A DNA stretch of 64,000 nucleotides. It comes from Candidatus Latescibacterota bacterium. GTDB lineage: Bacteria; Latescibacterota; UBA2968; GCA-2709665. This document shows, piece by piece, positions 30,401 to 50,479 of the stretch (position 1 is its first letter; each line of letters begins with the position of its first letter). Made by a program: the position numbers and the translations under genes. Under the pieces are notes generated by a model. It did not search any database, was not told the DNA's origin, and worked only from the letters and a program-made list of their open reading frames with translations. The stretch covers positions 672,001 to 736,000 of the forward strand of contig CAXXXF010000015.1 in NCBI GenBank assembly GCA_963667175.2, written 5' to 3'.

Positions 30401-30944
30401 TGAGTTCGGCGGTGAAAATGGGGATGCCGTTCAGGAACAGGACCAGATCCAGGCTCTTCTCATTCTTCGCGCTGTAACGTATCTGGCGGACAACCGTGAA
30501 AAAGTTGGCCATATACAGTTGGCGCGTCTCCTCGTTGAGCCCGCTGGCCGGCCGGAAGTATGCCAGTCGGAACGTGCAGCCCATATCCTTGATGCCGTTC
30601 CGAAGGACGTGGAGAACGCCGCGGCGGTCGATTTCCGACGCCAGGCGTCTGAGAAAGCGATCTCTGACTTCGGCGCCGTAGTGATGGGACAGCTTCTTCC
30701 ATTCCTTCGGCTGAGTTGCGATAATGAAATTGAGAACGTCTCTGGGCAGAAGGCAGAGTGTGCGGTCGTAGTCCTCTGGCTTTCCCTTGAAGTAGCCGCC
30801 GGGTTCCATTCCCTGGCCGCCGATAGGCAACCGGCCTTCACGCACACCGGATGGAAAACCTCCTGACCCATCCTTACCGTGGCCGAGCAATGTCGCCTCA
30901 ATGGCGTCTTCGAACGCTTTTTCAGAAACAACGGGACTCATCAT
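27408..30944 (-). CDS. hsdR: Type I restriction endonuclease subunit R with C-terminal Schlafen/AlbA_2 domain
   Basis: DLVLFLNGIPIFTAELK nuclease, HSAGSGKT, IVDEAH, FTATP, KFQTGFDQP, QTLSRINR; C-terminal GESKTLEFKS...AFLNTEGG.LLIGVADDG. Confidence 0.93.
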   Translation of the reverse strand: MMSPVVSEKAFEDAIEATLLGHGKDGSGGFPSGVREGRLPIGGQGMEPGGYFKGKPEDYDRTLCLLPRDVLNFIIATQPKEWKKLSHHYGAEVRDRFLRRLASEIDRRGVLHVLRNGIKDMGCTFRLAYFRPASGLNEETRQLYMANFFTVVRQIRYSAKNEKSLDLVLFLNGIPIFTAELKNLLSGQSVEDAIRQYKTDRDPRGEPLLGYGRCLAHFAVDPELVYVTTRLAGAKTRFLPFNQGNNGGAGNPPVPPTQSGYATSYLWEETWSRDSVLDLVRQFIHEVEEEDENGRKTGRKSLIFPRYQQLDCVRKLISHARRAGAGQRYLIQHSAGSGKTFTIAWLAHQLSTLHDVEDRRAFDSIVVITDRRVLDRALQAAMRQFEQTLGVVENIDTTSRQLKEALESGKTIIVTTLQKFPVIAEEIGQLPGKRFALIVDEAHSSQSGESTKSLKAVLASDSLKEAEDEESGAETPEEELENAILEEMEKRGYLPNLSTFAFTATPKSRTLELFGTRRPDGSFEPFHLYSMRQAIEEGFILDVLENYTTYRSYWRLLKTVEDDPRYDRQKATYLLKSFVDLHPHAIEQKVRIMVDHFADHAQSRIHGKAKAMIVTRSRLHAVRFKLAVENYLTELGYPFKALVAFSGAVEDGGQSYTEPGMNGVSEAQTARTFKAPEYRFLICANKFQTGFDQPLLHTMYVDKKLGGVNAVQTLSRINRTEPGKDGTMVLDFANDADDIKESFMPYFETTLLSEATDPNLLYEIQTRLADYPVYDQGDVDEFARVFFDSNAKQDRLHAVLKPVVDRFSDLDEPEKMDFRGRLVDYVRLYAFLAQILPFNDVDLEKLYVFSRHLRRLLPMVRAVLPLEVQQNIDMESYRIQETRKGRINLHQGTTNLEPVGTKDTHGLQEEEMETLSRIIAELNERFGAELGPEHRATLGQMMDRLSDDAALGAAARLNTRENVRLTFDHKVEEVIQEIVDSNFDLYKRITDDRAFGEVIKDILFDQYVRTHRSAEDLIKQGESKTLEFKSTLRWNLKEDRKDDKRVTHAAIKTIAAFLNTEGGDLLIGVADDGTAVGIERDRLDTRDKFMLHLAQVVRNGLGDRAGACIDPEVQIVDGKEVCVVSCQRSPEPVFLSWKDLEKEDGGDFFIRSGPGTVKLSAESTREYIRTRFGGSDSE

Positions 30945-32158
30945 GCGACTCGTGAAGGCATTGTGGTTTTCGTTTCGTCCTCTTCCGCGGCAGCCGGCGC
31001 ATCAAGGATATCGAGCACCGCGTCCGCACAATATACACGGTTTCGCTTTGCGTCGCCAAACGGCGTGACAATTCCTGCCGATCGCAACCGGTCGACGGCG
31101 CGCCGGGCCGTCGTATACGCCACCCCCAGCTTCGATGCGAGCATGGGGACGTTCCAGAACGGGAATTCGACGAACAGTTCCAGAACCTTCTCCAGATTCG
31201 CCGATCTGGCGCCGGCGAACTGATCCGACCAGAGGCGGAACAATTCGTCGATGCGTCGGATCCGAAGAATGGCGTCTTCGGCCTGCTCTGCAACACCGCG
31301 CAGAAAGTACACCAGCCACGCCTCCAACGCTCCGTCCCGGGTCACCCTTAGCAGGTGTTCATAGTACTCCTGACGCGTCGATTCAAAGTACGGGCTCAGG
31401 TAAAGCACCGGTGCGGGCAGGACCCGTCGCGCGACAAGTAGCATGGAAATGAGCATGCGCCCGACGCGCCCATTCCCGTCGAGGAACGGATGGATGGCCT
31501 CGAACTGCGAGTGCATCAGGGCGGCGTGGACGAGAGGAGGGAGTGATTCGTCGTGAAGAAAGCGCTCCCACGCGCCCAGGCATCCCATCAGTTCATCCGG
31601 AGGCGGCGGCACGTACGTGGCATTGGTCAGCACCGCCCCGGGCGGGCCAATCCAGTTCTGGCCGCGGCGAAACTCACCAGGAGTTGCCCTTTCGCCACGC
31701 ACACCGTGCATAAGGCGCTCGTGCAATTCCCGAACCAGCCGTAACGAAAGCGGAAGCGTTTCCAGACGAGCGATACCGTAGTCCAACGCCACGATATAGT
31801 TCGCCACCTCTTCCAACTCTTCCGCGCTTCGTTCTACCCTCGCTCCGGCATCTACAGCGAACAATTCGCCCAGAGAAACCTGCGTCCCCTCGATGCGGCT
31901 GGAGAGCACGGCTTCCTTGAACAGGAACGACCGGGTCAAGAGATATGGAACCGGCATCCGCCTGCCTTCGCCCTGCCTCGCCGGCCGACAGGCCGCAAGA
32001 CGGCCCATGGCATGGTCGGCGCGCGAAAGCGCGAGTACCAAATCGGTGTCCCAGGAAATCTCAGGAGGAAGCGGGTCTGGGACAAATGCGCTGTACCCAC
32101 CCGGACATCTGACCGTGCGACCAAGGGGTTGGCTTCGACCATTCTTTCCGGATGTCAT
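30941..32158 (-). CDS. Fic family protein (Fic_N + Fic + C-terminal HTH)
   Basis: EAVLSSRIEGTQ, PGEFRRGQNWIG, HPFLDGNGRVGR. Confidence 0.93.
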   Translation of the reverse strand: MTSGKNGRSQPLGRTVRCPGGYSAFVPDPLPPEISWDTDLVLALSRADHAMGRLAACRPARQGEGRRMPVPYLLTRSFLFKEAVLSSRIEGTQVSLGELFAVDAGARVERSAEELEEVANYIVALDYGIARLETLPLSLRLVRELHERLMHGVRGERATPGEFRRGQNWIGPPGAVLTNATYVPPPPDELMGCLGAWERFLHDESLPPLVHAALMHSQFEAIHPFLDGNGRVGRMLISMLLVARRVLPAPVLYLSPYFESTRQEYYEHLLRVTRDGALEAWLVYFLRGVAEQAEDAILRIRRIDELFRLWSDQFAGARSANLEKVLELFVEFPFWNVPMLASKLGVAYTTARRAVDRLRSAGIVTPFGDAKRNRVYCADAVLDILDAPAAAEEDETKTTMPSRVA

Positions 32159-32167
32159 GATCCTGCC

Positions 32168-32230
32168 TTATTATCGATTTAGAAAATAACAACGAGCCTT
32201 ATTATCGAAAACTTCATAATTCGATAATAA
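32168..32230. promoter_or_regulatory. Probable operator upstream of the fic gene
   Basis: ttattatcga-N12-tcgataataa (32199-32230) plus a third half-site at 32168-32177. Confidence 0.6.
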
Positions 32231-32495
32231 TATAATGCAGGTGAGTCACAAAGAGAAGAACTGGCTTCTCTGGTACCAGCCAGTTCCCCAGTAACGTTAA
32301 GCAAAGTTCTATCCGAACGTGCAGAATATCATCCGTTTGAACTCGTAGGTGTCGCAGTTATGTCCGATACTAACAATGCGTGCCTTTTGTTCTCGGTACC
32401 TCTCTTGTTTCGACCAATAATCGGAATTTGACCTATAAATTAACGCCAAGGTACTCCAAGTCATCGTCGTCGACCGTGCCTTCGGTCCGCCCGAG

Positions 32496-34418
32496 TTATT
32501 CTAGCGGGTCAATTATCGAGAGTTTTTCCATCTGCTCATCGGAAACCTTTAGTGTGATTTGGAGCCAAGGCGCACACTGCTTGCGGTTCGGCTTGTCAAC
32601 GAGAAAAAAACCAATTCCGAAGATATCTCTGTCGTTCGTAAACCCTCCTGATCTCAAACAGCGATTATAGAGTTTGTCGCCATCGTTCTTGATTGCCTCA
32701 CGAAGCGTCTGATTGTCATTGGCGTGCATATCTTCTGGCTTAATTTGTTTCAGATGGTCAATTAGCTCGTTGACAAAGGGTCGCCTTAACAGCACCCGAT
32801 GACCTACGTTCTGACCGGAACGCGAGGGGATGAGCGTAGCTACGGTCGGCGGATTCATCTCGATCTTCTTGATTCCATCTGTCATGCGTATCCACACAGT
32901 GGCATTCGCGTTTATTCCGAAAGCTGGTGCCGTTGGCAACCCAATACGGGAGAGATCTACAAGCGCACGGCGTTGCATATCTTGTGCATACAAAGAGCGA
33001 AATGTACCGAGGAGCTTGTAGTCTTCATGTAGCGATCCTTCTCCATTGACAGGGAATGTCTTTAGATCCTTTGGCTTCCACTGCACACTATAGGGCTTGT
33101 TTTTATAGACGAATAAATCATCTGCAGCTGCGTCTTTGTCATCGAAAGTACATAGTGTACCGCCCATAGTTAGGACGCTCGTCACTTTGATCTTGTTTTT
33201 TCGTGGGACCAAGTCGCAGTCGGGAGTTATTACGGCGCGGATATTGCATTCTTCAGGATGCACATAGAGATCACCAAGTCTGTATCGTTGGCTTTCATCT
33301 GAGAGATGACCGCTGACTCTAACCCTGTGGAATAAGTCTGCGATTATTCGGGACGGTCCTTCGAAAGCGCCCTCGATATTTTCCTCCATGCGTCTTGTGT
33401 CGTCCAAGTTGGAGAACACAGTGTTCCAATTTGTCTTCTCTTCAACCCAACCTTTTAAGCATTCACCAAACAACCATCCCAAATACTCATTGAGCGTAAT
33501 CCCTTCCTCCCGAAGCCTGAAACGCAACAGATACGCGAAGTCCTTTGTATGGAGATCGCCTAGTTCCGAAATGAATGCGTCCAGAGCGCACTCAGCACCT
33601 TCTCTCCACTGTGTAAGTGTTCTCTGAAGCTCCTTACCGAAGAGATAGCCTTGTGTCACGTCCATTAGCGCATTGGCTGCGACGTTTTCGACTCTGATTC
33701 TCTTACCCTTCTGTTGAACCATATTCTTTTGTAGGAATTCAAACCGGACTGCCAAAATCTGTCCCGTGGCATTGTGGCGATATTCACTGACATCATTCGC
33801 AACATCACGGGAGGACATGAGGATTATTGCAGGAATTCCAACGTCCTCCGTATTGTTGACCACGTCATTGAGTAGGTTCAGCGATTCCCGCCGTGCGGCA
33901 CGTGACTTCTCCGGTTCTACTATGCCCACTGGGAGAATATCGCTGTCCAAGAAATAATCTAAGAAGAGAACATCCGGGCGCAATTCCAGATACTTGCTTA
34001 GTCCATCATCTATTCCAGAGGTCCAAACTTGGACGTCATCTCCACATTTGCTTAGCATTTGATAAAGTGGATTAAGGGCGTCGAGCGCGGAGCCCTTGAG
34101 TGATTCAAACTTCAAGTCACGATCTATTCTATCATTTCTTGTCTTGGTGAAATCTCGGTATAGCACGCGATAGACGGTTTCTAATTCTTCGTTTTCAGCG
34201 TCGCCGCCTTTAGCGGCTTCCTCTGCCGCAACAAGCGTCTCTTGTGTTATGCCTAGCTGCAAGCATAATTCACGATTAGTTCCGTCAAGAAAAAAGTCGT
34301 CGAGATCGACTGCTGCATCCTCGTTGAACGCTGGAGGATCGTACGCATCGTCAATTAGAAGGATCTTCGTGATCTCGTTAGACTTAAACGCCTCAATAAT
34401 TCGCTTTTCGTGTACCAT
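32496..34418 (-). CDS. Receiver-domain protein with large uncharacterised C-terminal region
   Basis: KILLIDD...PDVLFLDYFL...IILMSS receiver motifs with a long insert; C-terminal VITPDCDL motif. Confidence 0.75.
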   Translation of the reverse strand: MVHEKRIIEAFKSNEITKILLIDDAYDPPAFNEDAAVDLDDFFLDGTNRELCLQLGITQETLVAAEEAAKGGDAENEELETVYRVLYRDFTKTRNDRIDRDLKFESLKGSALDALNPLYQMLSKCGDDVQVWTSGIDDGLSKYLELRPDVLFLDYFLDSDILPVGIVEPEKSRAARRESLNLLNDVVNNTEDVGIPAIILMSSRDVANDVSEYRHNATGQILAVRFEFLQKNMVQQKGKRIRVENVAANALMDVTQGYLFGKELQRTLTQWREGAECALDAFISELGDLHTKDFAYLLRFRLREEGITLNEYLGWLFGECLKGWVEEKTNWNTVFSNLDDTRRMEENIEGAFEGPSRIIADLFHRVRVSGHLSDESQRYRLGDLYVHPEECNIRAVITPDCDLVPRKNKIKVTSVLTMGGTLCTFDDKDAAADDLFVYKNKPYSVQWKPKDLKTFPVNGEGSLHEDYKLLGTFRSLYAQDMQRRALVDLSRIGLPTAPAFGINANATVWIRMTDGIKKIEMNPPTVATLIPSRSGQNVGHRVLLRRPFVNELIDHLKQIKPEDMHANDNQTLREAIKNDGDKLYNRCLRSGGFTNDRDIFGIGFFLVDKPNRKQCAPWLQITLKVSDEQMEKLSIIDPLE

Positions 34419-34420
34419 TC

Positions 34421-36775
34421 TTACCTCATTTCAAGCACAAACATGTTAGTGCGTCCCTCGCGGATGCGACCGAACTCAGTATCCATTTGTAGTCTCCAGC
34501 GATGGTATTCAGCCAAATCGCGGGCGATATAGAGCCCCAGTCCTCGGCCTTGGCCGATTGGCTTTGTGGTTATAAATGGTTGGAAAATCCGCTCTAAATT
34601 TTCGCTTGTGACACCGGGTCCGTTGTCCTCAATGGATAGGATTTTGTCTTCAAGATCCACAACTACATTAAGGCTTGGTTTGAGATCCCATTCAAACAGC
34701 TTTTGCTGTTTGAGCCAATAGGCCGCATTAGCGATCAAGTTCTCAAGGATTTGGATTACCATGCCACGCACAGCCTTAATCTTGAAAGGATCTTGAGGAT
34801 GCTCAAAACAGACGGCTATTCCATGACGTTCAAATTCGCGTTCATGGTTTTCAAGGATCTGCCTGACCAGTTCGACGAGATCGAAGTCGGATTTCGTCTG
34901 TCGTTTCTCGCTTGTCAATTCGTCAAACGCAGCAATTCGTTTGTGCAACGTCTTTAGCTGATCTTGAAGCGATTCAATCGTCGTCTGTTGCATTGTCGAG
35001 TCGCGGGAAATTAAATCGATAGTGTGGGTGACGGCCCGCTCAAGCTCGTGAAAAATGAACTCGGTCATTAGTCCGATTCCAGCCAAGTAAACGAATTTCT
35101 CTCTTTCCTCGTCGGCTTCCGAGATTACGCCCTTTACTCGTTCGATGAGGTTCTGAGACTGAATGCTGAGTCTGTTCACGCTTCCGGATAAATTGTCCAT
35201 CTCGGGGGCTGCGGCGGTACCCACGTGCTCGCGCAATCGCTTCAAATCTGCTTCCACGCGCCTTCGTGCATCCGCGACAGTTTTCGTATCCTGCTCAGCT
35301 TCGCGACGCCTAATAAACTCAATGTTGTCAGCTTCGTTTATAAGTCCACGCATTGCGGTATGGACCACCCACATCAAGATTCTTTGCAAGGCACCAAAAG
35401 TATCCGACGTTATCAGTCCTTCGCGGTTAGTCTGTTCCCGAAGAGCCTCATGAGGTGTATCTAGAAGGACTCGTCCGATCATCTGCTGCCGGTTGAGTTT
35501 GAATCCACTCATGCCAAAGGCAGTCTCGTCAAGGGCCAACCAATCATCTTTGGGATCGCCATAGGGTAAAATGCGGAAACCGTGCCGGTAGAGCATCGGC
35601 CCCCCACTCCAGTTCGATATTTCCCGACGGGTTTCGGGAACTTTGGTCGTAAGCCCTTCGACCGCTGTAACGACCCTGCGGTTGTACCAGTAGATGTCAC
35701 AGCTAAAACTCCCGAGTTGCTTAAACGCAAAGGGTCGAACCGGAATTAGCTTGAATGCCGCATGGCCACGTTTTGCGCGTCGCTTCACAGGTTCTTGCGC
35801 GAGCGAATACACCGCTGCGCCCCTTTCGTCAATCTTGCTTTTTCGATGTCGGTACCGATAGTCGATTTCCCCTTTGACGATAGGTGTGTGCCCTTCCATT
35901 CGGAATGTCATGTGGCATACAGCGTGCGCTGCTTGAAGGAGCGGATCGGGAATGGAAGGTACGTGCACCCTCCTACTGTTGTAACGCGCGACAATTAGAC
36001 GATTGGCACTTCCGCGGTCGAACGGATCGATCATCCGTGCAATCCTGCCTTGTAGGATATCAGTAAAGCGGGGCAAATCCCAGTCGGCCTGTAGGGCCGA
36101 GACACGAATTGTTGTCCCCTGCTCACCAGGCTCCGCTTTCTCGTCACCGATTTCAGGTTCTATATTGATCATGTCTGCGTCAACGTCGTCATCACGTGAG
36201 AACAGCGTCCAGTCGATGTCGAGAAGATTCCAATATCGGTCTTCTCTTCTGGCAGTCTTGACTCTCAGTCGGTCTCCCAATCGCATGGCGGATAGGCGAC
36301 CAATACCCTTATCACCTAAATTCTTGGCTCCCTGTAGATTCTCCTTTCGTCGTGAGCTTGTTCCAATTCGCAAGAAGACGCTGGTCAGGTCATTTAGACT
36401 CATTCCATGTCCTGCATCTTTAAACTCGATGTAGTTTAGCTCGTCGTATAGAGATGCAAGAGTCCTGAGGAAGTCTTCCTTCTCCGAACTCTTCTCGAGT
36501 TCATCAAGCATCGTCGCTGATTTGGATTTTTCGACATCAATGAGTTTACCGCGAATGAAGTCCTTGACTTCGGATGGGCTCTTTCCGTCCTCGTTGATTT
36601 GAGTGATTGCATCCAAATAGTCGGAATTGCGCAACTGGACACTTACGTTGATTTCGACACGAGGTGACCGAGCATCTACAGCGTTCTTGATTAGCTCGTA
36701 GATTGCTACGTCATCGGAACTTATCAGTTCTTTCCCAAGTTCCAAAATCGTGCGGGCAGAAAACGTAAAGCTCAT
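34421..36775 (-). CDS. MORC-like GHKL ATPase fused to a histidine kinase
   Basis: N-terminal ELIKNAVDA, KDAGHGM, GDKGIGR; C-terminal H box FHELER, ENLIANA, EDNGPG, IFQPFITTK, GRGLGL; no TM segments seen. Confidence 0.88.
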   Translation of the reverse strand: MSFTFSARTILELGKELISSDDVAIYELIKNAVDARSPRVEINVSVQLRNSDYLDAITQINEDGKSPSEVKDFIRGKLIDVEKSKSATMLDELEKSSEKEDFLRTLASLYDELNYIEFKDAGHGMSLNDLTSVFLRIGTSSRRKENLQGAKNLGDKGIGRLSAMRLGDRLRVKTARREDRYWNLLDIDWTLFSRDDDVDADMINIEPEIGDEKAEPGEQGTTIRVSALQADWDLPRFTDILQGRIARMIDPFDRGSANRLIVARYNSRRVHVPSIPDPLLQAAHAVCHMTFRMEGHTPIVKGEIDYRYRHRKSKIDERGAAVYSLAQEPVKRRAKRGHAAFKLIPVRPFAFKQLGSFSCDIYWYNRRVVTAVEGLTTKVPETRREISNWSGGPMLYRHGFRILPYGDPKDDWLALDETAFGMSGFKLNRQQMIGRVLLDTPHEALREQTNREGLITSDTFGALQRILMWVVHTAMRGLINEADNIEFIRRREAEQDTKTVADARRRVEADLKRLREHVGTAAAPEMDNLSGSVNRLSIQSQNLIERVKGVISEADEEREKFVYLAGIGLMTEFIFHELERAVTHTIDLISRDSTMQQTTIESLQDQLKTLHKRIAAFDELTSEKRQTKSDFDLVELVRQILENHEREFERHGIAVCFEHPQDPFKIKAVRGMVIQILENLIANAAYWLKQQKLFEWDLKPSLNVVVDLEDKILSIEDNGPGVTSENLERIFQPFITTKPIGQGRGLGLYIARDLAEYHRWRLQMDTEFGRIREGRTNMFVLEMR

Positions 36776-36785
36776 GGTAGAACCC

Positions 36786-37586
36786 TCACAACATGCATAT
36801 CAGGCACGTGTCCCCATCCGCATCGGTCTGTACTTGCCGGCGGCGATAGACTTCCGCGAGGGTAAGGTCCTCACCTCTTGCTTCCTTCGCAGCCTGACGC
36901 TTGGCGTGTTCGTCCTTAATTGCCTTTACTCGTTCGGGTTGTTCCAGCTGAATAAGCGACTCGCGTTCGCTCCAGGTGAAAGTATTCCCGCTGCCTTCAA
37001 ACGGCTTTTCATAGGATTTCGCCAACTCGTAGAGTTCAGGGTGCCGTTCCTTCAGGCGTACCCATTCGATTTTTTGTTGATAGAAACAGAAGTAACAGCC
37101 CGAACGGGTACGACCCCAGGCCGTATATGGCGGCATTCCGACACCTGAAGACCTGAGAATCTCCTCAATGTCCGCGAGCTTCAGTCCGTCCTCCTGGAAT
37201 GGATATGCGGGCTTGATATTCGGCTTGTGGCTGATGTATCCCGTCCGGTTCTCATCTGCCCTCAGGCCTACGTAATTGATGACCGGATCGTCGCCGACGA
37301 ACTCTTCGAACGGCTTGAGTTTAAGCATCTTGGTACACCATCGACGATGGTTGGAGGGGATCATACCGCCGTAGACTTCGTACCAATGGTCAAAACCCAG
37401 TTCGGCATTCAACCGGTTGACGCGCGTGCCAAGATAGTCTTCGATGCGTTCAAGATACTCGTATGTCTCAGGCAACTCTTTGCCGGTATCCGAAAATACG
37501 TACTCCATATCCGCGACTTTGTCGCGCATATAGATCGCAAGCGCCGCTGAATCCTTGCCCCCTGACAGGCTGAGCACATGCCTCAT
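36786..37586 (-). CDS. sspD: PAPS reductase-family protein, SspD-like (copy 2)
   Basis: LSGGKDS, DTGKELPE, RWCT, RSGCYFCF.QQKIEW, C-terminal CLIC. Confidence 0.88.
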   Translation of the reverse strand: MRHVLSLSGGKDSAALAIYMRDKVADMEYVFSDTGKELPETYEYLERIEDYLGTRVNRLNAELGFDHWYEVYGGMIPSNHRRWCTKMLKLKPFEEFVGDDPVINYVGLRADENRTGYISHKPNIKPAYPFQEDGLKLADIEEILRSSGVGMPPYTAWGRTRSGCYFCFYQQKIEWVRLKERHPELYELAKSYEKPFEGSGNTFTWSERESLIQLEQPERVKAIKDEHAKRQAAKEARGEDLTLAEVYRRRQVQTDADGDTCLICML

Positions 37587-37606
37587 GTTTGATCCACCTC
37601 TTGAAG

Positions 37607-40600
37607 TTAAACCTCTGCGGCATTCTTATGAGTGTGTTCTGCATGCGCGTATTCAGCAAGCAACTGTCCAAGTAATTCTACGACGTGAGGGTCGTTACCA
37701 AGCGCTTCACGTAGAGTGCTCAACCGCGGTTCCAGGTACGGATTCGGCCGCTCCCTCTGTACCACCACCACTCGCTCGCGTCCGTCGAGACCGATTGCAT
37801 GCACGCTCGTCAAATCGGCGCGGCGGTTCCGTTTCGTCTTCGCCAGAGCGAGCCATTTGGAAAGACTCTCCGCCACAACGCGAATCTCGAATTCAAACTT
37901 GTCGAGCTCGTCATCTGTCCAATTATCCGGCCGTCGCCCAGTCAGATGCCCTGCGACTCCATCCAGCCACATGTCCTTCGAAAGCTCTTCATTCGTCGCG
38001 CGGTCAAGAAATACACCCAGGCGATAGTCAATGAGGTCGTCACGGTCCGGTGCATATTCGTTTTGTATGTGATTTCGCAACGCACATAAGTCCGGTTCGC
38101 CGAATGCTTGTAGCGCCGCCGTCTCGGCTTTCGACCTGATCAACGGTGTGGCATTTTGAAGTTCAAAGAGCGCGGAGTTGAGTGTTTCGATAAAGTGCTC
38201 AACGTCGACTCTTCCGCTCGCCGTTATTGCGCCACAGGCCGAGGGTAGGTCAACAAAGAACAAACTCCCCGGTTCCGAAGCCTTGCGTAGTTCCGCACGA
38301 ACGGCGGCAGCGGTCTTGGAAACTGAACCGGTCTTGATCGCGTGTGCAGGTAACCCGTTGTACCACGAATAGAGATTTTCCGCTACATTGGCAATCGTTG
38401 GCTGGCACCGACCGATTACTTGCAACCCCGTCGCAAGCGCATCCACAACGCCGCGGCCTTGCACGTTTGCTTGAAGGGATTTTAGCCGGAAGTTGCGTGG
38501 CGACTTGGCCAGCCGCATGAAATGAGCGGCCGTCAGATCAGGCTGGAAACTGTTGCGTTCCATAACGGCGATGTTGTCCCTTGACGCCAGGATAAATGCC
38601 GTGATAACCAGCAAAGCTGGGCCCTCGTGCAGCCCATACGGCGGTATCGCCAATTCGTCTATCAGTTCAGCGAAACTTACGGCTTCACCGGTGTTCAGTC
38701 GGTTTGCAATACACTCCCAAACAGGCATCCAGTGGCATGGATCGTCTGAATCTGGCGCGATAAAGTTGAAATTTCCTCTCGTGTCTTGTCGATGGATTCC
38801 CGTTGCATGGAACATCGACAGGAAGATCGTCCGTTCGGGCGGTGTGCCCTCCATCCCGAGTTGAGGCTGATTCACGCAGGTTAACATTCGATCCAGAAGA
38901 CGGGTCCTGGCGCTTGCGACTGCGGTTGAAAGCCTGGAGCGGTTAATCAACTCGTTCTTGAGAATCGGCGCCTGGTGAAAGGCCTTGTCACATATGTTGC
39001 TGAGGAGGCCACTCAATTCCCCGGGAGGTATGGGAATTGGCTCCCCTCCGAACCACCAAGTTTCTTCGCGAGAGCTACTCGCTGACGACAATAACGCGGT
39101 GGCGTGAGTCAGTGCCTGCTCCGCAGCCGCAATCCGTTCGCTGACTTCAACACGCGCGAGTTCATCGACTTTCAGTTCCTGGCAGTTGTCCTGGATCCAC
39201 CGCCAGACGGCCAACTCATGTGCCCATTTGAGATCCGCGGAAATAACTTTCCTGGCGCAGACGAGCGCCAATGGATCATCTATTACAGTCGAAGAAGCGT
39301 CTCGGAGCACCTTTTCCTTATGATCCCCCGGGTAAACCGGCGCCACAAGTATCAAGCCGTCAGTCTTGCGGCTCCCCGGTTTCTCGCCAGTCCAAAGCTG
39401 AACTTCGAACGTTCTTAGCGTACCTGTCGCGTGATAATGCCGATGTGCGACGGCCGGGCGATTTGAGGTCACAACGGTTGACAAATGGTCGAGCCGTTCC
39501 GGAGCGCGGATCTTCGATTTGGCTTCATCCAGCCAGTGTGAGAGATCTACACTTGAGTTTGACCATAGGCTATAGTCGCCCCGGTGTGGGCGGCGGTAAA
39601 TGAGATTTCGCTTTGCAAGTTCATCCAGTACGGACTGAGCCTTGGCTTCGCCAACGTCCAAGGACCAGGCAATGTTCCGACAGTTGGCGATAAATCCCGG
39701 AACCGGCTCCAGAACCGCCACCAGCGCGACGGTTTTCAAGACAACCAGATAGTCTTGCGAAAGGTCCGAGGCGCCAGCAAGGGCGTCAAAAGCAAGCGAC
39801 CATCGGCGGGCGCGTTCGCCCAGGTTGGCCTCGTTGAAGGTTCCAGCCAGATGATCGAATACCGACGGTACCATGTACCAATGGTCTGGACCATAGGTCG
39901 TGGAGTCGGAGAATCTCTTGAGCCCCGCGGGCTCAAGGGATTGCAGAAAGCCGAATAGAGACCGTTCGTTTTGCCCGAAGCGCCGTATGGCCAAAGAGAG
40001 TGTGATAATGGCGGCCGGGTGGAGTGGATAGAGGCAAGGAGCGATCTCAACCACGTCCTCAAGCGGCGCCACAAAGAGACGTCGGTTTACGGCCTCCTTG
40101 TAAATATCCTTAGCCCGTCGCACTACGTCGTTCGAGTGGCCCTGGCTCGGCACGATCGCACGCGCCAACATGAAGAGTGACTGTTCGATGGATCCTCCGA
40201 ATGCCAACTCTTCATAGCGTTCGGAAGATCGCGACCATTCCGCTTCTATCCATCCGCCCAGTCCGGCGACAAAGTCGGCGAACCTGCGATGCAAAAAACC
40301 AACGATCGCAAGGTTCGCCCCTGCGCGTCCACAGGATCGCTCGGCAACCGCCTGGAATATTGACGGATCCTCTACGTCGATATTGGAGGCAGCATACTCC
40401 AGAAGGAGTCCCATCTCGTCGACCAGGAGCAACAGTCCTTCGCCGGTCTCAGTGCGAACCTGATCGGCAATTTCACCGAGCAACGATGTAACTTCGTGCA
40501 CATCGAGAGAACCCTCTCGATCCAGGAGTGACTTTGCGCGCACCTTGAGTTTGGTAGAAGTGGTACTGGATCTTCGTCCACAGTCGCTGATGAGTACGCG

Positions 40601-40972
40601 CAAAAGCTCCCGCGAAAAACTGACACGGCGTCCGGAGATCATCACAGGTCGCCACCGGCCAACATCGTGAGAATCACCTGTGGCTTCGGACAGCAACGCC
40701 ATCGCGTTTCCGCGAATGCCCTCTCGAAATAGTTGCGCCAAAAATACGCCAAAGGCCGATTTTCCGGTGCCGTAGGGTCCAACAACCCGAAACGCGCGTT
40801 GCCTCGATTCAGGGGATAATCCGGCGAGGATTCGCACCGCAGCCTCGCGGACCGATGGGGTAATAACGTAGCCATCCAGCGCGTCGGGGTCGTCGACGTC
40901 TCGCAGTAAATCCACGGATCGGACGTACCGACGGCGGATTGCAATACGGGAAGCGATGTTTTTCCCGTTCAT
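37607..40972 (-). CDS. sspC: Large P-loop ATPase, SspC-like (copy 2)
   Basis: GPYGTGKS, LLVDEMG, YPLHP, FGQNERSLFGFL, RHYHATGTLR; co-linear with copy 1. Confidence 0.82.
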   Translation of the reverse strand: MNGKNIASRIAIRRRYVRSVDLLRDVDDPDALDGYVITPSVREAAVRILAGLSPESRQRAFRVVGPYGTGKSAFGVFLAQLFREGIRGNAMALLSEATGDSHDVGRWRPVMISGRRVSFSRELLRVLISDCGRRSSTTSTKLKVRAKSLLDREGSLDVHEVTSLLGEIADQVRTETGEGLLLLVDEMGLLLEYAASNIDVEDPSIFQAVAERSCGRAGANLAIVGFLHRRFADFVAGLGGWIEAEWSRSSERYEELAFGGSIEQSLFMLARAIVPSQGHSNDVVRRAKDIYKEAVNRRLFVAPLEDVVEIAPCLYPLHPAAIITLSLAIRRFGQNERSLFGFLQSLEPAGLKRFSDSTTYGPDHWYMVPSVFDHLAGTFNEANLGERARRWSLAFDALAGASDLSQDYLVVLKTVALVAVLEPVPGFIANCRNIAWSLDVGEAKAQSVLDELAKRNLIYRRPHRGDYSLWSNSSVDLSHWLDEAKSKIRAPERLDHLSTVVTSNRPAVAHRHYHATGTLRTFEVQLWTGEKPGSRKTDGLILVAPVYPGDHKEKVLRDASSTVIDDPLALVCARKVISADLKWAHELAVWRWIQDNCQELKVDELARVEVSERIAAAEQALTHATALLSSASSSREETWWFGGEPIPIPPGELSGLLSNICDKAFHQAPILKNELINRSRLSTAVASARTRLLDRMLTCVNQPQLGMEGTPPERTIFLSMFHATGIHRQDTRGNFNFIAPDSDDPCHWMPVWECIANRLNTGEAVSFAELIDELAIPPYGLHEGPALLVITAFILASRDNIAVMERNSFQPDLTAAHFMRLAKSPRNFRLKSLQANVQGRGVVDALATGLQVIGRCQPTIANVAENLYSWYNGLPAHAIKTGSVSKTAAAVRAELRKASEPGSLFFVDLPSACGAITASGRVDVEHFIETLNSALFELQNATPLIRSKAETAALQAFGEPDLCALRNHIQNEYAPDRDDLIDYRLGVFLDRATNEELSKDMWLDGVAGHLTGRRPDNWTDDELDKFEFEIRVVAESLSKWLALAKTKRNRRADLTSVHAIGLDGRERVVVVQRERPNPYLEPRLSTLREALGNDPHVVELLGQLLAEYAHAEHTHKNAAEV

Positions 40973-41904
40973 GACCAGGCGATCTCCGAGAGTGCGCGTA
41001 AGGGATCCGTGTCGCAGGTCAGGTCTGTACCGCCGGCGCCGTCGCTACGCAGCGCAAGCCGTCGCGACCGCGAGCAGAGTTGCTCGAGACTCTCGTGGAG
41101 GCCAGTTTCGTCCAACAAAAGGACCGGTCCGGGTGCGGCGTACGAGAGCATAAGTGATCGGATAGACAAAGTCAAACTCTCGGGAGCCGTGCACTTCCAG
41201 TAGTCATAGAGTACAAAGCTAAACGCCTTCGAGTCAAGGGAACGTTTCGGACCTCGTAATGGCCGCACGGTCGCAACGCCTGCGGGGTTAGCCAGGCGCA
41301 TGAGTTCAAGTTCCTGTAAAGGGCTATCGAGTGCGTCTTCGGGCGATTCTGCTTTATTTTGATCTTCTACATACGTGCGAAGAAACACATTCACGTGATT
41401 GACTGCGGTTCCGGAAGTAATTGTCTTACGTGTCTCGGATGCCCGTGATCTTACATCAGCGACGAATTGCACCCGCGTAATTTCACGATCCTGGTTCTCC
41501 AGGAAAAACACTGCCCACGCACCCAAACCACCGTGGACGGTCAGCATCCAGTGAAGACGCCAGAGTGCGTCTGGAGTCTCGAGGTACGGATCCATACCAT
41601 CTTTGGGGTCTAACAAATTTCGCGCGAAATCCGTCAAGTACACGTCTCGCTTAACAGTCCGCGTAAGCTTGAAGGCTTCCCCCCAGAAGCGAAGCGACTT
41701 GACCATGTTTCGCCCGAGTCCAAGCCGCAGAATCGCCTTCTCATCTGAAGAGAATAAGGCCGGATCTTCGATTAATGCTTCATATAACTTGGGTAGCCAG
41801 CCGTATCGACAAGCAAACGACTCGTGACCTGAGAAGACGCTCGGGGCTGTGTTCGTTCTCCATCCCATTTCCCTATTATCCCGACTTCGTTCTGCTGCGT
41901 TCAT
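40969..41904 (-). CDS. sspB: DUF4007 family protein, SspB-like (copy 2)
   Basis: FSGHESFACRYGWLPK, GLGRNMVKSLRFW, DPYLE, DSPLQEL. Confidence 0.85.
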   Translation of the reverse strand: MNAAERSRDNREMGWRTNTAPSVFSGHESFACRYGWLPKLYEALIEDPALFSSDEKAILRLGLGRNMVKSLRFWGEAFKLTRTVKRDVYLTDFARNLLDPKDGMDPYLETPDALWRLHWMLTVHGGLGAWAVFFLENQDREITRVQFVADVRSRASETRKTITSGTAVNHVNVFLRTYVEDQNKAESPEDALDSPLQELELMRLANPAGVATVRPLRGPKRSLDSKAFSFVLYDYWKCTAPESLTLSIRSLMLSYAAPGPVLLLDETGLHESLEQLCSRSRRLALRSDGAGGTDLTCDTDPLRALSEIAWS

Positions 41905-43097
41905 TCAAGGGTTCCCCTTATTGAACGCACCTTATCACAAAGCAGTCCTGCGGCCTTATGCACATGATCGCAGGTGGTTGTTCGTCCAAAACCCAGTCGC
42001 ACAGTCCCGGCAGCCAGAACATTGGACAATCCAATTGCTCTCAGAGTTTCCGACTCCTTAAGAGATCCTCCGCTGCATGCGGAACCGGTTGCGAGAGCGA
42101 GTTCCGGTAGGGACGCCAACAGAAGATCCGCATCAACGTCTTCGAATGCGATGCTTAAATTATGTGGAATGCGTTCTTCGAGCGATCCATTTACTTGCCA
42201 CCGACTCAAGTCGGCGAGTCCTTCAAGCATGATCTCGGAAAGATACTTGGCGTGTTTAAAGTCACTTTCGAATTGAGCGCGTGCTAAATCACATGCTACA
42301 CCAAAGCCAACACAAATGGCTACCGGAAGCGTGCCCGGTCTGAGGCGGTTTTCCTGGCCACCGCCCGAGGCTTGAGGTCTAGGGATCTCGGCCCCATTTC
42401 GTATGAAGAGGGCTCCAACACCTTGTGGACCGTAAATCTTGTGGGAGGAAATGGAGCCGTACGTCACGGACGATTGATTCAGTTTCAATGATATCTTGCC
42501 GGCAGCCTGGGTCAAATCGCTATGAAACGGCACCCCAGATTCGGCACAGAGCTCAGCCGCCTCGTCAATTGGCTGGATCGTGCCTATTTCATTGTTGACT
42601 GCCATTATTGACACCAGTGCAGGGTTCGATGCAAGTGCCTCTTGAAGGTCTTCGAGGTCGAGTATGCCATCCTCATTAACGTCAAGGCATCGTACGGATC
42701 TCCCGTCTGCCTCGAGGCCGAACGCAGTCTCCATGACGCTGGCGTGCTCTATCGCTGATATGGCAAGTTCGTCGCCAGCGCGCGTTAAGCCGCGTAGAAC
42801 TATATTGGACGACTCTGTCGATCCAGAGGTGAATGTTACCTCACTGTGTTCGCAACCAAGTAGTGCGGCGACTTTATCGCGTGCTTCCTCGACCGCTTCG
42901 GATGCAGTGCGGCCAATGCGGTGCTCAATGGAATGAGCATTCCACGGTCCTGACATCCAGGGTAACATGGCCTCCAACACGTCAGGAGCGAGAGGGGTAG
43001 TGGCCTGAAAATCGAGAAAAATCGTCTCGTTACGCGCCCTTGAAGCAGCTTCAGCGAAGTCTATCGAAGGCGCATTTTCGATTGTAGTCAACTTCAA
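41901..43097 (-). CDS. sspA: Cysteine desulfurase, SspA-like (copy 2)
   Basis: DFQATTP, FTSGSTE, NNEIGTIQ, SSHKIYGP, ATGSAC; overlaps sspB by 4 nt. Confidence 0.87.
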   Translation of the reverse strand: MKLTTIENAPSIDFAEAASRARNETIFLDFQATTPLAPDVLEAMLPWMSGPWNAHSIEHRIGRTASEAVEEARDKVAALLGCEHSEVTFTSGSTESSNIVLRGLTRAGDELAISAIEHASVMETAFGLEADGRSVRCLDVNEDGILDLEDLQEALASNPALVSIMAVNNEIGTIQPIDEAAELCAESGVPFHSDLTQAAGKISLKLNQSSVTYGSISSHKIYGPQGVGALFIRNGAEIPRPQASGGGQENRLRPGTLPVAICVGFGVACDLARAQFESDFKHAKYLSEIMLEGLADLSRWQVNGSLEERIPHNLSIAFEDVDADLLLASLPELALATGSACSGGSLKESETLRAIGLSNVLAAGTVRLGFGRTTTCDHVHKAAGLLCDKVRSIRGTLE

Positions 43098-43230
43098 CCT
43101 CCCATTGTTGTAGCAACGGAAAGTTCAATTGTCTGGCCACTTGTTTCAATCGCAAACTTCGAACGAAGATTGGCGGGGCGGTGCCAGGCGGCGGCGCAGA
43201 GAATATTTGCTGACGCTTTTGTCTTTGCGA

Positions 43231-44568
43231 TCACGCGACGTTCCGCACATCGATTTTGCCGGTTACAGCAGCCGAAATCAACGTCGCACGCAGCTCCTTT
43301 AGACGTTCGATAGCCTCGCGAACTCTGGTAGCGAGCGTGTCAATCTTTGCTGTTTCGTGGTCAAGGAAGGCTGCGATGGCACATTGTTCGTCTAAGGGTG
43401 GGAGAATCACATCCAAACAGGCGAGTTCACTCGGATTTATTGCGGGGTAACTCACGCCGACAGAATGCGCCACGACACGTTCAACAAAATACGGAGCGGA
43501 CGCTACATAGGCAACATATCCGTAGTCCATCTGTCGTGGGCGTAATACCGCGAATCCTGTGGAAACAATGAGGTTTGCATCGGAAGTCTCAATTTGGGCG
43601 ATGGCTCTCAGATAGGTGCGAACTGTGGAGACGATAACGTCACCCTTGCGCACAATGCGGCGAGCTCGAGAAGGTGCGTTCTCAAACACCATCACTTCGG
43701 AATCTGTGATTCCTTGAATGGAATCGACGTTCCCAATATCAACGTATGCAATTTCCATACCTGGGTCGGTAGTTTCGGGCAGGGTTTCGTCGTTTATTGT
43801 TGCAGCATGTTTCAGCCGCTTCACCTCCCAATGCGCGGGTAGCTCGCCTAGCCACTCGACGCCCGACTCCTTCATAGGCGCATCGGGATCGAGGCCCTTC
43901 GTCACGGCGTGGCTGATGAGCGCGGCGCGCTTCTCTTGGAGCAATTCGATCAAACGCTCCTTTTTCTTAACGAGCGCGTCGATCCTGGCCGTCTCACGGT
44001 CCAGAAAGTCCGCGATCGAGCGTTGTTCGGGGAGGGGTGGGAGTGCGAATACTGCGGAACGAACGGAATCACCAGTCAGCCCGAACCTCGTGATGCCGTT
44101 GGCCGAAACGTGAAACTGATCTCGCGGTCCAGTCGCAGCAATCAATCTACTAAGGAACCGACCATCACAATGACCAAATGGCCGTATGTGGGCTAAGTGG
44201 TAACCGCATAAGACACCAGGCAGATCCTCGGAGACTACCGCTGGAACTGCTATGTCCATCCAGGTCTCCGAATCCTTAGTAATTAGGACATCGCCTGACT
44301 GCAGTGAGAAACGACGTACCTGTTCCTTCGTTGCAGTTGCGGGCATGAATTCCAGACTCTCGTCAATGTGCTCATTGTAATAGACATCCACGTAGTTGCA
44401 TAGCTGTACGAAATCTTGCCCTTCCGTGGACTTCTTATCGACGTTGCTCAGCTGAACTGTGGCAAACGACTTTAGCCGGGCCACGTCCCAATGAGCCGGC
44501 ATTTTTCCCAACCACTCGATGCCGGAGTCCTTGTATTCCGGGTAAGGCTGGAGGCGAGTGGGTGTCAT
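43231..44568 (-). CDS. hsdS: Type I restriction enzyme specificity subunit S
   Basis: Two TRDs with KDSGIEWLG.MP.HW / KESGVEWLGELPAHW and PPL.EQ..IA.FLD.ETA.ID; ends AAVTGKIDV. Confidence 0.95.
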   Translation of the reverse strand: MTPTRLQPYPEYKDSGIEWLGKMPAHWDVARLKSFATVQLSNVDKKSTEGQDFVQLCNYVDVYYNEHIDESLEFMPATATKEQVRRFSLQSGDVLITKDSETWMDIAVPAVVSEDLPGVLCGYHLAHIRPFGHCDGRFLSRLIAATGPRDQFHVSANGITRFGLTGDSVRSAVFALPPLPEQRSIADFLDRETARIDALVKKKERLIELLQEKRAALISHAVTKGLDPDAPMKESGVEWLGELPAHWEVKRLKHAATINDETLPETTDPGMEIAYVDIGNVDSIQGITDSEVMVFENAPSRARRIVRKGDVIVSTVRTYLRAIAQIETSDANLIVSTGFAVLRPRQMDYGYVAYVASAPYFVERVVAHSVGVSYPAINPSELACLDVILPPLDEQCAIAAFLDHETAKIDTLATRVREAIERLKELRATLISAAVTGKIDVRNVA

Positions 44569-48664: not shown

Positions 48665-48731
48665 GAAGGTCGACCTTGATGATATTGTCGTCTTGTACAG
48701 TTCGTCTGGTACAGAGCCCGGAATGACGCTA

Positions 48732-48763
48732 AATGTCGGCACTTAGATATATCTGCCGACATT
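48732..48763. promoter_or_regulatory. AbiEi-type operator inverted repeat (copy 3)
   Basis: aatgtcggca-N12-tgccgacatt. Confidence 0.7.
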
Positions 48764-48820: not shown

Positions 48821-49744
48821 CTATTCGTATCTCCACGGTCCGCCCGCCTTCCAACTCCCATGGAAACCACTTCTGCGCGCCAACGCATCCCACGGTTCTC
48901 TGAAAAACGACATAAGACGGTCGCCCAAAGAACTGAAATCTGCGGGCGCACCCAAAAGCGCGTTCCGTTCCACATAGGTACGCCACTGTCCGGCATGTTC
49001 GGCGTCAGCGTAAAAACGGGGAGTCATAGCAACAGGGAGAGTCTGTGAGAATGAGGTACGGCGTCGATCGAAAGTCGCACGCATAGCTCTTACGAGTTGA
49101 TCGCCCTCAAAAGAGAATTGCTTTACCAGGGTATAAAGATCGTAAAAGTCCTTGTTGCGGCTGTTTCTTTCGCCGAGCACGACCATCGCATGAAGCTTTT
49201 CCGCAACGACGGCCTCCCGAGGGTAGACTCGGATATCCGGACTGGGATTGTCGAGCAAGGTCTTGTAAAGAGTGTCCTTGGGAGGCGGTTCGACGGCATT
49301 TCCAAAGCCAATGTCGATCTGCATATTTACGCGTGCGTTATCCAATGTCGCGTTGAAACGCACACGGAGACTGTCATACATGTCCTGATCGCGAATGGTT
49401 TCGATCTCGATGTTGTTAAAGTCGAAGGCAACTCCGTCTTCGTCAACCGGAGTCTGACAGATTTCCTGGATTGAGGACTTAACGTCGCCAAACAACGAAC
49501 TGCCGTAGCCCGTGAAATCGAGGTCGCGTGTCGGTCGGTAGACTGCTTCGCCCCAATGGACAAGGAGCATGGCGCCCTTCAAGATATAGCGATTACGATG
49601 CGGTGACTCTCCAAGTCGATAGAGGAATCGCTCTGCCGCGTATCGCTCCAGCAGGAACTGAAAATCCTCACCAGTTTGGCGACTCCGGTTCAGCAGCCTT
49701 GCACGTACGGATGCGCCGACATTGCGGGGTTTTTCGCGTGTCAT
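48821..49744 (-). CDS. AbiEii nucleotidyltransferase toxin (type IV TA), pair 2
   Basis: LKGA, RPTRDLD, IDIGFG, AEKLHAM, NSRNKDFYD. Confidence 0.92.
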   Translation of the reverse strand: MTREKPRNVGASVRARLLNRSRQTGEDFQFLLERYAAERFLYRLGESPHRNRYILKGAMLLVHWGEAVYRPTRDLDFTGYGSSLFGDVKSSIQEICQTPVDEDGVAFDFNNIEIETIRDQDMYDSLRVRFNATLDNARVNMQIDIGFGNAVEPPPKDTLYKTLLDNPSPDIRVYPREAVVAEKLHAMVVLGERNSRNKDFYDLYTLVKQFSFEGDQLVRAMRATFDRRRTSFSQTLPVAMTPRFYADAEHAGQWRTYVERNALLGAPADFSSLGDRLMSFFREPWDALARRSGFHGSWKAGGPWRYE

Positions 49745-50334: not shown

Positions 50335-50361
50335 AAGTCAACCGCTTGCGAAGCGAATTTA

Positions 50362-50393: not shown

Positions 50394-50479
50394 TAATGCT
50401 GATTGTCGATCCTGTTTGCACACCCAACGACGTATCCGTGCGCCGAGTCGCGCCGTCACAGTGCCAATAAATGATGGTG

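Follow-up and report, generated by a model that had tools for sequence, protein, structure and literature searches.

A predicted SspABCD phosphorothioation cassette with a GHKL-histidine kinase and a receiver protein in a Candidatus Latescibacterota bacterium

SspABCD-SspE is a phosphorothioate (PT) defence system reportedly described by Xiong and colleagues in 2020. Detocs (DtcABC), attributed to Rousset et al., is said to be a defensive two-component system with a nucleosidase effector and an extra buffer receiver, and the prokaryotic MORC/paraMORC group is reportedly treated by Iyer et al. in 2008. The locus analysed here lies in the genome of a Candidatus Latescibacterota bacterium (GenBank assembly GCA_963667175.2), within a stretch of 64,000 nucleotides (contig CAXXXF010000015.1, positions 672,001 to 736,000 of the forward strand) that is referred to as the window; all coordinates are window positions unless a different locus is named. 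It comprises six genes, of which four are predicted to encode an SspABCD modification module and two a soluble hybrid histidine kinase with an N-terminal GHKL ATPase domain (P0001) and a receiver protein (P0002). The cassette had been singled out by an earlier annotation made from the letters of the window (the sequence-only reading).

According to Wang 2021 (PMC8092258), SspABCD is paired with SspE or SspFGH, unrestrained SspFGH is toxic to PT-less cells, and 83.9% of 2,678 sspBCD loci (2,211) carry neither sspE nor sspFGH, for which unknown restriction partners are proposed. The cassette shares with these systems the modification module, the canonical gene order and the setting in a defence island, and its extra genes stand directly beside sspD, as sspE and sspFGH do. 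Unlike in the SspE (DUF262+DUF1524) and SspFGH systems, the partner is a putative His-Asp phosphorelay pair, a logic that is not described for any PT system in the literature searched.

The closest described counterparts of this pair are the HEF_HK (PF19191)/Response_reg_2 (PF19192) pairs with a paraMORC ATPase, predicted by Bellieny-Rabelo et al. 2021 (PMC8011034). That paper reports 91.6% linkage between the two families and their enrichment next to C5 methylases, Vsr and type II restriction-modification (R-M) systems; where Response_reg_2 proteins are found with methylases and Vsr, no regulated target is obvious. The precedent invoked by the sequence-only reading, MORC-kinase/receiver pairs beside methylases, is real. 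PMC8011034 contains no mention of phosphorothio-, DUF4007, PAPS, Dnd or BREX, and no experimental follow-up of its prediction was found in the literature. A reappraisal of Dnd systems (PMC10853773) is likewise free of the terms histidine kinase, receiver, MORC, two-component, GHKL and HisKA, and in a BREX survey (PMC12839542) the only kinases that come up are minimal ones linked to Schlafen. PMC7464106 and PMC12421847 each note, in a single sentence and without analysis, that kinase genes lie next to ssp genes in Acinetobacter, the former speculating that they form a two-component system regulating sspE; no Acinetobacter protein was found among the 120 matches listed in either receiver-family search. 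Apart from these mentions, no description of a coupling of Ssp with a kinase-receiver pair was found in the literature searched. The sequence-only reading knew of no experimental description of the pairing; kinase genes beside ssp genes had been mentioned in print twice.

Six ORFs (open reading frames) on the same strand fill positions 32496-43097. Their order, co-orientation and junctions (sspA-sspB and sspB-sspC each overlap by 4 nt, and gaps of 20, 10 and 2 nt follow in turn down to the receiver gene) match the sequence-only reading exactly, and Pfam and PADLOC agree with the identities it had assigned (cysteine desulfurase, DUF4007 protein, P-loop ATPase and PAPS-reductase-like protein; Table 1). 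The ORFs are long, and the family E-values lie well outside what chance would give. Judged by profile matches, the cassette has the gene content of an Ssp modification module, with SspA, SspB, SspC and SspD near full length and in the order A-B-C-D. The SspC match spans positions 1-1050 of the 1054 positions of the PADLOC profile, and the Pfam scan of this protein gave no match; in SspA, family matches begin at residue 26-27, so the true start may lie downstream. A promoter and terminator scan of 31800-43500 yielded counts at or below shuffled expectation and was uninformative. The receiver gene is followed by a 337-bp gap and then the unrelated SoFic gene, with no further conserved downstream gene in the cassette.

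Table 1. Features of the window, with family E-values or other grounds for assignment (aa, amino acids).
Feature	Position	Strand	Grounds
sspA, class V cysteine desulfurase, 398 aa	41901-43097	minus	Pfam Aminotran_5 2.5e-62; PADLOC SspA 1.2e-116, DndA 4.6e-114
sspB, DUF4007 protein, 311 aa	40969-41904	minus	Pfam DUF4007 3.5e-59; PADLOC SspB 4.4e-72; 4-nt overlap with sspA
sspC, BrxC-like P-loop ATPase, 1121 aa	37607-40972	minus	PADLOC SspC 2e-238, BrxC 7.9e-113
sspD, PAPS-reductase-like ATP pyrophosphatase, 266 aa	36786-37586	minus	Pfam PAPS_reduct 8.5e-13; PADLOC SspD 9.5e-115, full length
Kinase gene (P0001), soluble hybrid kinase, 784 aa	34421-36775	minus	HATPase_c_3 and HATPase_c
P0001 residues 1-230, paraMORC-type GHKL (Bergerat) ATPase	36086-36775	minus	HATPase_c_3 2.5e-18 (residues 115-196)
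P0001 residues 553-784, class I histidine kinase DHp and catalytic domains, H576 in FHELER	34424-35119	minus	HATPase_c and sensor-kinase matches
Receiver gene (P0002), 640 aa	32496-34418	minus	Predicted receiver fold N-terminal, output region C-terminal
P0002 residues 1-243, predicted CheY-like receiver	33690-34418	minus	AlphaFold2, Foldseek and invariant residues
P0002 residues 245-640, output region	32499-33686	minus	Conservation; no family match
Second sspA	9261-10439	minus	PADLOC SspA 3.6e-127
Second sspB	10629-11633	plus	PADLOC SspB 4.3e-105
Second sspC	11633-15016	plus	PADLOC SspC E=0
Second sspD	15013-15855	plus	PADLOC SspD 1e-135
c8, 817-aa protein	18351-20804	plus	Weak GHKL signature, HATPase_c_3 1.7e-4, below the Pfam cut-off
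ATP sulfurylase gene	5472-6731	minus	PF01747 1.9e-60
hsdR with C-terminal Schlafen/AlbA_2 domain	27408-30944	minus	
SoFic	30941-32158	minus	
hsdS	43231-44568	minus	Type I R-M
1326-aa TPR protein with PIN-TPR-GreABC domain	44762-48742	minus	
Two AbiEi/AbiEii pairs	48821-52041	minus	
hsdM	52559-54712	minus	Type I R-M
Group II intron, complete, just upstream of hsdM	54784-56736	minus	Rfam Intron_gpII 54784-54930, group-II-D1D4-4 56599-56736
Reverse transcriptase/maturase ORF of the group II intron	54941-56311	minus	
tRNA-Lys, near the right end of the window	59748-59823		

P0001 combines two ATPase modules. The N-terminal module additionally matches the N-terminus of the BbrUII/HgiDII restriction enzymes (NCBIfam, 6.7e-15, residues 112-248), which likewise start with a GHKL domain of the HATPase_c_3 type, and its motifs I-III are, as read from the residues, of the prokaryotic MORC/paraMORC type. 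In the C-terminal module, HATPase_c covers residues 673-769 (Pfam, 1.7e-18), and residues 553-772 resemble solved sensor kinases (phmmer, best E 1.8e-13). An alignment of 24 kinases, the most distant at 34% identity, shows 120 invariant residues, including H576-E577 (H box), N679/N683, D717-N-G719-x-G721, F731/F734 and G745-L-G747-L in the kinase core and E27, N31, D34, D120-x-G122-x-G124 and K156-G157-x-G159 in the GHKL head. Because these residues are invariant, both ATP sites and the phospho-His are under selection. Residues 230-550 between the modules are conserved as well, and the stretch 360-455 is very conserved. No transmembrane segment was detected in the kinase or the receiver protein (no 19-residue window above Kyte-Doolittle 1.3). 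Two further statements of the sequence-only reading, that the H/N/G1/F/G2 boxes are intact and that the kinase lacks evident transmembrane segments, are thus borne out by the alignment and the hydropathy profile, respectively, in line with a cytoplasmic kinase. The head differs from that of GHKL restriction and defence proteins in being fused to a histidine kinase rather than a nuclease, so that the output would reach a second protein via phosphotransfer. A precedent for a GHKL head that controls an immune effector is provided by the GHKL-Shedu protein VcSduA, whose ATPase-dead GHKL mutant loses defence (PMC12137116).

P0002 as a whole gave no match in Pfam, PADLOC or NCBIfam, even at E 10. 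Its relatives number 151 among the scored candidates; all of the 120 matches listed lack a precomputed Pfam domain, and those that are named are called 'hypothetical protein'. The AlphaFold2 model (pLDDT, the predicted local distance difference test score, 82.7; pTM, the predicted template-modelling score, 0.76) places a receiver fold at the N-terminus, in which strand 1 is separated from strand 2 by a helical insert of ~95 residues (about 33-128). Foldseek returned dozens of receiver domains at probability 1.00, with E-values (8e-3 to 5e-2, none at or below 1e-3) that are modest because the query is long, and a profile search of PDB sequences gave marginal receiver matches alone (E 0.32 and 1.2). 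The residues corresponding to the acidic pair (D23/D24), the acceptor Asp (D154, inside LFLDY), the Ser/Thr (S202) and the Lys (K231) of a receiver are invariant in a 36-sequence alignment; after addition of members of about 20-35% identity, D23, D24, D154 and S202 were still invariant and K231 was at least 90% conserved. Taking predicted fold and catalytic residues together, we accept the N-terminus of P0002 as a receiver domain, and the DD motif and putative phosphoacceptor Asp named in the sequence-only reading are preserved in all the aligned sequences. On the level of residues, the pair thus carries the classical two-component set (DHp His and N/G1/F/G2 boxes; receiver DD, D, S and K). 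The predicted complex of two copies of kinase residues 545-784 with receiver residues 1-245 scored 0.00, which gives no verdict and is evidence neither way.

The output region of P0002 matched no Pfam, NCBIfam or PADLOC family, and Pfam detected no helix-turn-helix or other DNA-binding family in 36 family members. It is composed of a helical domain (DFAYLLRFR motif), a beta-rich core (motifs LGD, ITPDCDL, W447/K450 and YAQ..QR..L.DLSR.G) and an alpha/beta tail. Positions conserved across the family are W271, D293, Y312, G382-D383, P399, C401 and D402 (the conserved positions of ITPDCDL), G420, W447, K450, Q482, R491 and G493; with its invariant or near-invariant polar residues D383, C401, D402, K450, Q482 and R491, the region looks enzyme-like. 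Its profile retrieved 980 cluster representatives at E <=1e-3 and 411 at E <=1e-30, and among the 150 matches listed, full-length proteins carry the region in the same place, after about 215-270 N-terminal residues. When modelled alone (pLDDT 78.7), the beta core weakly resembled MazF/PemK and CcdB, its best structural matches, at the level of fold only. The top Foldseek match was E. coli MazF (E 3.4e-3, probability 1.00, target-normalised template-modelling score 0.53), and the MazF/CcdB matches overall had probabilities of 0.97-1.00, E-values of 3.4e-3 to 5e-2 (none at or below 1e-3), target-normalised scores of 0.5-0.6 and root-mean-square deviations of 5-7 Å. Unlike these toxins, the P0002 core forms part of a 400-residue region attached to a receiver, and it shows neither sequence nor profile similarity to them.

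Two candidate assignments of the output region were rejected. A sequence link to MazF/PemK received no support from hhalign against 29 PemK proteins from relatives (E 0.5 and 0.38, probability <=0.2%); PemK_toxin (PF02452) gave no Pfam match in the 36 members, and the profile search of PDB sequences gave nothing relevant. A Toprim or PD-(D/E)xK nuclease reading of ITPDCDL was discarded because distant members (TPACDL) do not retain D400 and E349 and because the Foldseek matches included no nuclease fold.

The association of the pair with ssp genes was assessed in a scan with one genome per species, in which 51 pattern stretches matched and 25 were confirmed; the resulting 24 loci carry the labels Latescibacterota, Thermodesulfobacteriota, Chloroflexi, Spirochaetia, Acidobacteria/Bryobacterales, Gemmatimonadaceae, and Alpha- and Gammaproteobacteria. 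The kinase gene lies directly upstream of the receiver gene in all of them. SspC and SspD were found within the 10-kb flanks in 17 loci, co-directional and in the order seen in the window in 15 and on the opposite strand, downstream, in two (L019 and L023). In L003, L008, L009, L011, L018 and L024, SspFGH adjoins the pair (PADLOC SspG 6.8e-196, SspH E=0). SspD lies behind SspFGH, 1.2-2.9 kb past the fetched flank, in L003, L008, L009 and L018 and probably 5.4 kb past it in L024 (same contig inferred from coordinates only), so that the order in this group is sspBCD-sspFGH-kinase-receiver, or convergent; in L011, whose assembly is fragmented, an SspH fragment adjoins the pair and SspD is on another contig. 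In L021, the order is sspBCD-kinase-receiver-sspFGH. L002 has a cysteine desulfurase gene and an sspD remnant (7418-7630 of that locus, two stop codons) directly before the kinase gene and an intact SspD-like gene 725 kb away.

The same linkage was seen on plasmids and within the phylum. All five plasmid records with P0002 relatives are ssp-linked; Methylorubrum extorquens pME152 carries the full co-directional cassette, and on two other plasmids SspFGH is interposed convergently. Phage records gave no match to P0002 relatives. Among the 168 genomes of the window's phylum, SspD was detected in 44 and P0002 relatives in four, the window's own included, each of the latter 2.4-6.0 kb downstream of an SspD; relatives are thus present in 4 of 44 SspD-bearing and 0 of 124 SspD-less genomes. 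Two more distant kinase-receiver pairs in the phylum are ssp-linked as well. Within the genus, occurrence is patchy (1 of 14 same-genus genomes). Summed over the genome-scan loci, the two distant pairs and the five plasmid loci, all 31 other loci are ssp-linked, under about eight phylum-level labels and in three arrangements (co-directional, convergent and SspFGH-interposed), and no other neighbour is common to more than 9 of the 31. The recurrence of sspBCD with the MORC-kinase and receiver genes in unrelated genomes, proposed as a check by the sequence-only reading, is therefore found in every locus. As a control, canonical PF19192 pairs in four same-genus genomes were not ssp-linked; SspD occurs in one of the four, 1.4 Mb away.

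Co-divergence was quantified by Mantel analysis of pairwise identities in 16 complete cassettes with 2000 permutations. The correlation was r=0.93 for kinase-receiver, r=0.73 for kinase-SspD and r=0.90 for SspC-SspD (0/2000 permutations reached r in each case) and r=0.70 for kinase-SspC (1/2000); because kin are not independent, these figures describe co-inheritance and are not proof of interaction.

Three of the loci show additional features. L010, like L002 with its sspD remnant, shows signs of decay: its genes for SspC, the kinase and the receiver protein are all in pieces, which frameshifts or assembly errors could explain. Upstream in L002, there are PDC-M33A/B-like proteins, DUF6339 and a 432-aa protein with a PAPS-reductase P-loop. 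In L023 (Brucella pseudogrignonensis), the stretch between the receiver gene and the inverted sspBCD (12017-15491 of that locus) encodes an SF2 helicase (ResIII/Helicase_C) and a further GHKL protein near ssp genes, a HATPase_c_3 protein of 644 aa.

In its architecture, the pair follows the HEF_HK/Response_reg_2 type: a soluble HATPase_c_3 kinase whose DHp domain has an H-E motif, an adjacent receiver-like protein of about 570-650 aa with loop insertions and a long uncharacterised C-terminus, and DNA-modification genes nearby. Over 212 aa, the kinase cores of the two kinds are 24% identical (E 3e-9), and their H boxes coincide in the alignment. The output cores align in hhalign comparisons of deep alignments with 74.7% probability (E 2.6e-5, 136 columns), the same comparison of shallow alignments giving 3.5% (E 0.012); PF19192 proteins of sister genomes share collinear motifs with P0002 (LG.., PxCD..R and AQ...LSRVG), and the output-region HMM (hidden Markov model) scores only 7-9 bits on five PF19192 proteins. 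Membership of P0002 in PF19192 by HMM is ruled out by the absent Pfam matches: neither P0001 nor P0002 matched PF19191 or PF19192 at E <=10, and PF19192 was found neither in the window's own genome at E <=10 nor in the 36 family members at E <=0.1. The Protein Atlas, used as a lead only, returned unnamed clusters and one PF19192-bearing cluster (score 0.87). The two kinds also differ in partner, which is Ssp phosphorothioation here rather than a C5 methylase, Vsr or type II R-M system; no C5 methylase or Vsr adjoins the pair in the window. From these alignments, we conclude that the pair probably represents a sister lineage of the HEF_HK/Response_reg_2 kind that has been re-partnered with Ssp. 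Canonical PF19192 proteins (542-634 aa), each with an upstream kinase, were observed in 4 of the 14 other genomes of the genus (L031-L034; 5 of 168 in the phylum), the window's genome not among them, so that two sister lineages coexist in one genus with different partners. The pair further resembles Detocs, as that system is reported, in its predicted combination of a cytoplasmic kinase-like sensor with a receiver fused to a putative effector and in a presumed role in anti-phage immunity rather than transcription control; it differs in giving no PADLOC match to Detocs, which reportedly has no linked DNA-modification module and a different sensor.

Neither SspE nor SspFGH is adjacent to the cassette in the window, and the kinase and receiver protein gave no PADLOC Ssp effector match. 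The assembly (5.52 Mb, 18 contigs, 95% complete) encodes no full-length SspH, a single 810-aa protein matching its HerA-like C-terminal end, and contains six DUF262/GmrSD_N proteins, all on other contigs, which gave weak partial matches (<=29 bits) to one of roughly ten PADLOC SspE models (PDLC02783). SspFGH adjoins the pair in 9 of the 31 loci and is not adjacent in 22 (L035 and L036 viewed only partway downstream). The formula 'instead of SspE/SspFGH' used in the sequence-only reading holds for this genome and for those 22 loci and fails for the nine with adjacent SspFGH. Because SspFGH stands beside the same pair there, the pair is not strictly a replacement; it is an add-on module able to coexist with SspFGH.

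A functional tie of the kinase-receiver pair to PT is very likely, since its linkage to ssp genes is strict and holds whatever the arrangement, the genes are spaced as in an operon and co-diverge, and the phosphorelay chemistry is intact. SspABCD would write the PT mark, and the pair would constitute a dedicated cytoplasmic two-component-like module tied to it. A soluble dimeric histidine kinase would use as its sensor an N-terminal paraMORC/MutL-like GHKL ATPase of the kind known from ATP-dependent restriction enzymes; this head may engage DNA or the Ssp machinery in an ATP-driven dimerisation cycle that depends on PT status, and its state would pass through a coiled-coil to the DHp/catalytic core. 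Phosphotransfer from His576 to Asp154 would then switch the output domain on or off. This route, from GHKL sensing through DHp to gating by Asp154, is suggested by the domain order, and the 400-residue domain gated in this way may damage the invader or arrest the infected cell. What the pair does for PT is less certain than the tie itself. We lean towards a PT-coupled restriction or abortive arm, acting alone with SspABCD, as here, or beside SspFGH, because the output region is conserved in an enzyme-like manner and lacks a DNA-binding family, the context is a defence island, and the effector position is vacant in most Ssp loci. Its most specific version, in which a MORC-type GHKL clamp reads the PT state and relays it by His-Asp transfer to a receiver-gated toxin of MazF/CcdB fold, making up a two-component checkpoint of self and non-self, is put forward only tentatively.

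Several points weigh against a defence arm of this design. No recognised nuclease, NADase or other effector signature is present in the output region, for which the MazF/CcdB fold is the sole structural lead, without sequence support, and a MORC-type S5 transducer in kinase residues 230-550 is assumed. The six DUF262/GmrSD_N proteins might act in trans as effectors of the SspE kind. Any genes that share one mobile cassette would be expected to show linkage and co-divergence, kin again not being independent, and PT, phosphotransfer, defence and toxicity are here predictions from genes alone. Finally, the presence of SspFGH in 9 of 31 loci implies that the pair is not needed as a restriction arm there and could be a regulator.

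This last point leads to the alternative that survives best, although we regard it as rather unlikely: the pair might be a feedback controller, resembling DndB in Dnd systems, that tunes PT density or SspBCD activity or expression, or that restrains or licenses SspFGH or another nuclease, the C-terminus of the receiver protein serving as a protein- or DNA-binding output and not as a toxin. Besides the loci with adjacent SspFGH, the lack of a recognised catalytic family in the output region would fit such a role, as would the published guess that Acinetobacter kinases regulate sspE (PMC7464106) and the end of the cassette, where the receiver gene precedes a gap and an unrelated gene with nothing conserved downstream. 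A regulator fits less well with a 400-residue output that has invariant Cys, Asp, Lys, Gln and Arg positions and no helix-turn-helix or other DNA-binding family in 36 members, and it would have no known nuclease partner adjacent in 22 of 31 loci or in this genome; the probably homologous Response_reg_2 proteins, too, sit with methylases and Vsr and have no obvious target to regulate (PMC8011034).

Less probable still is a function in addiction or stabilisation, in which the pair would punish loss of the PT cassette or mark by post-segregational killing, with phage defence secondary: in the style of a toxin-antitoxin system, continuous PT-driven phosphorylation would silence a MazF/CcdB-like toxin domain. 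The best Foldseek matches to MazF/CcdB (probability about 1.0, E 3.4e-3, target-normalised score 0.53-0.60) speak for this view, as do the position of the cassette on conjugative and mobilizable plasmids beside integrases and toxin-antitoxin genes and its patchy distribution within the genus, and the toxicity of SspFGH to PT-less cells, as given in PMC8092258, is a precedent for PT-dependent self-protection. Set against them, the fold match is weak and lacks sequence support, and no labile antitoxin-like element is evident; moreover, addiction overlaps heavily with a restriction or abortive arm and differs mainly in the selective benefit. That the pair is a self-contained defence or signalling unit like HEF_HK/Response_reg_2, sharing islands with Ssp without depending on PT, as the clustering of defence genes (here type I R-M, AbiE, SoFic and TPR-PIN genes) and the different modification partners of the PF19192 family (PMC8011034), not ssp-linked in four same-genus genomes, might suggest, is the least probable explanation in view of ssp linkage in 31 of 31 loci under about eight phylum-level labels and in three arrangements, no relative in 124 SspD-less genomes of the phylum, 10-nt and 2-nt spacings suggestive of one operon, co-divergence with SspC and SspD, and no other neighbour shared by more than nine loci.

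The window holds a second, diverged SspABCD operon (9261-15855), only 26-52% identical to the first. Its second sspD gene is followed by a 178-aa ORF without family, a DndB-like protein of 425 aa (Pfam DndB 4.8e-26) and the gene for c8. No similarity between c8 and the kinase was detectable (BLASTP E > 0.3). Homologues of c8 (50-54% identity) adjoin the kinase-receiver pair on either side and either strand in five of the 31 loci (L006, L016, L022, L035 and L069). In L035, from a same-genus genome, an orthologous second Ssp system (SspD 94% identical) is followed co-directionally by c8, a kinase sharing 33% identity with P0001 and a receiver-family ORF sharing 27% with P0002. The c8 protein may be a third component of kinase-receiver modules or an alternative Ssp partner.

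The first cassette sits in a defence island, nested, like its neighbours, on the minus strand in a split type I R-M locus (27408-54712; Table 1); neither this nesting nor the second SspABCD operon is mentioned in the sequence-only reading. The GC content falls from about 0.63-0.65 to 0.44-0.57 over 6-21 kb and to 0.48-0.59 over 27-58 kb of the window. The low-GC island with the second Ssp system has the ATP sulfurylase gene at its edge. No integrase was identified among the window ORFs scanned.

Whether sspBCD loci without a known partner are orphan epigenetic systems or use undiscovered effectors is a standing question, for which the kinase-receiver pair provides a clonable candidate: the pair could be the defence arm that many 'orphan' Ssp systems seem to lack, no operon-level association is tighter than its linkage to ssp genes, and cultured strains carry it, among them Methylorubrum extorquens ATCC 55366 and Ensifer adhaerens NER9, both on plasmids. 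The finding combines two known kinds in a combination that is not described in the literature searched, and it joins PT defence with the predicted paraMORC-kinase/receiver pairs beside methylases, two previously separate literatures, suggesting as a shared principle that a GHKL DNA-engaging ATPase reports modification status via a phosphorelay. If this is true, the pair would be the first case of His-Asp signalling that couples a DNA modification to an immune effector, would give a function to about a thousand uncharacterised protein clusters and would explain some of the sspBCD loci without a known effector, which make up roughly 84%. Together with the HEF_HK/Response_reg_2 pairs, it would then establish restriction or abortive modules of a 'modification-reading two-component' type as a general class.

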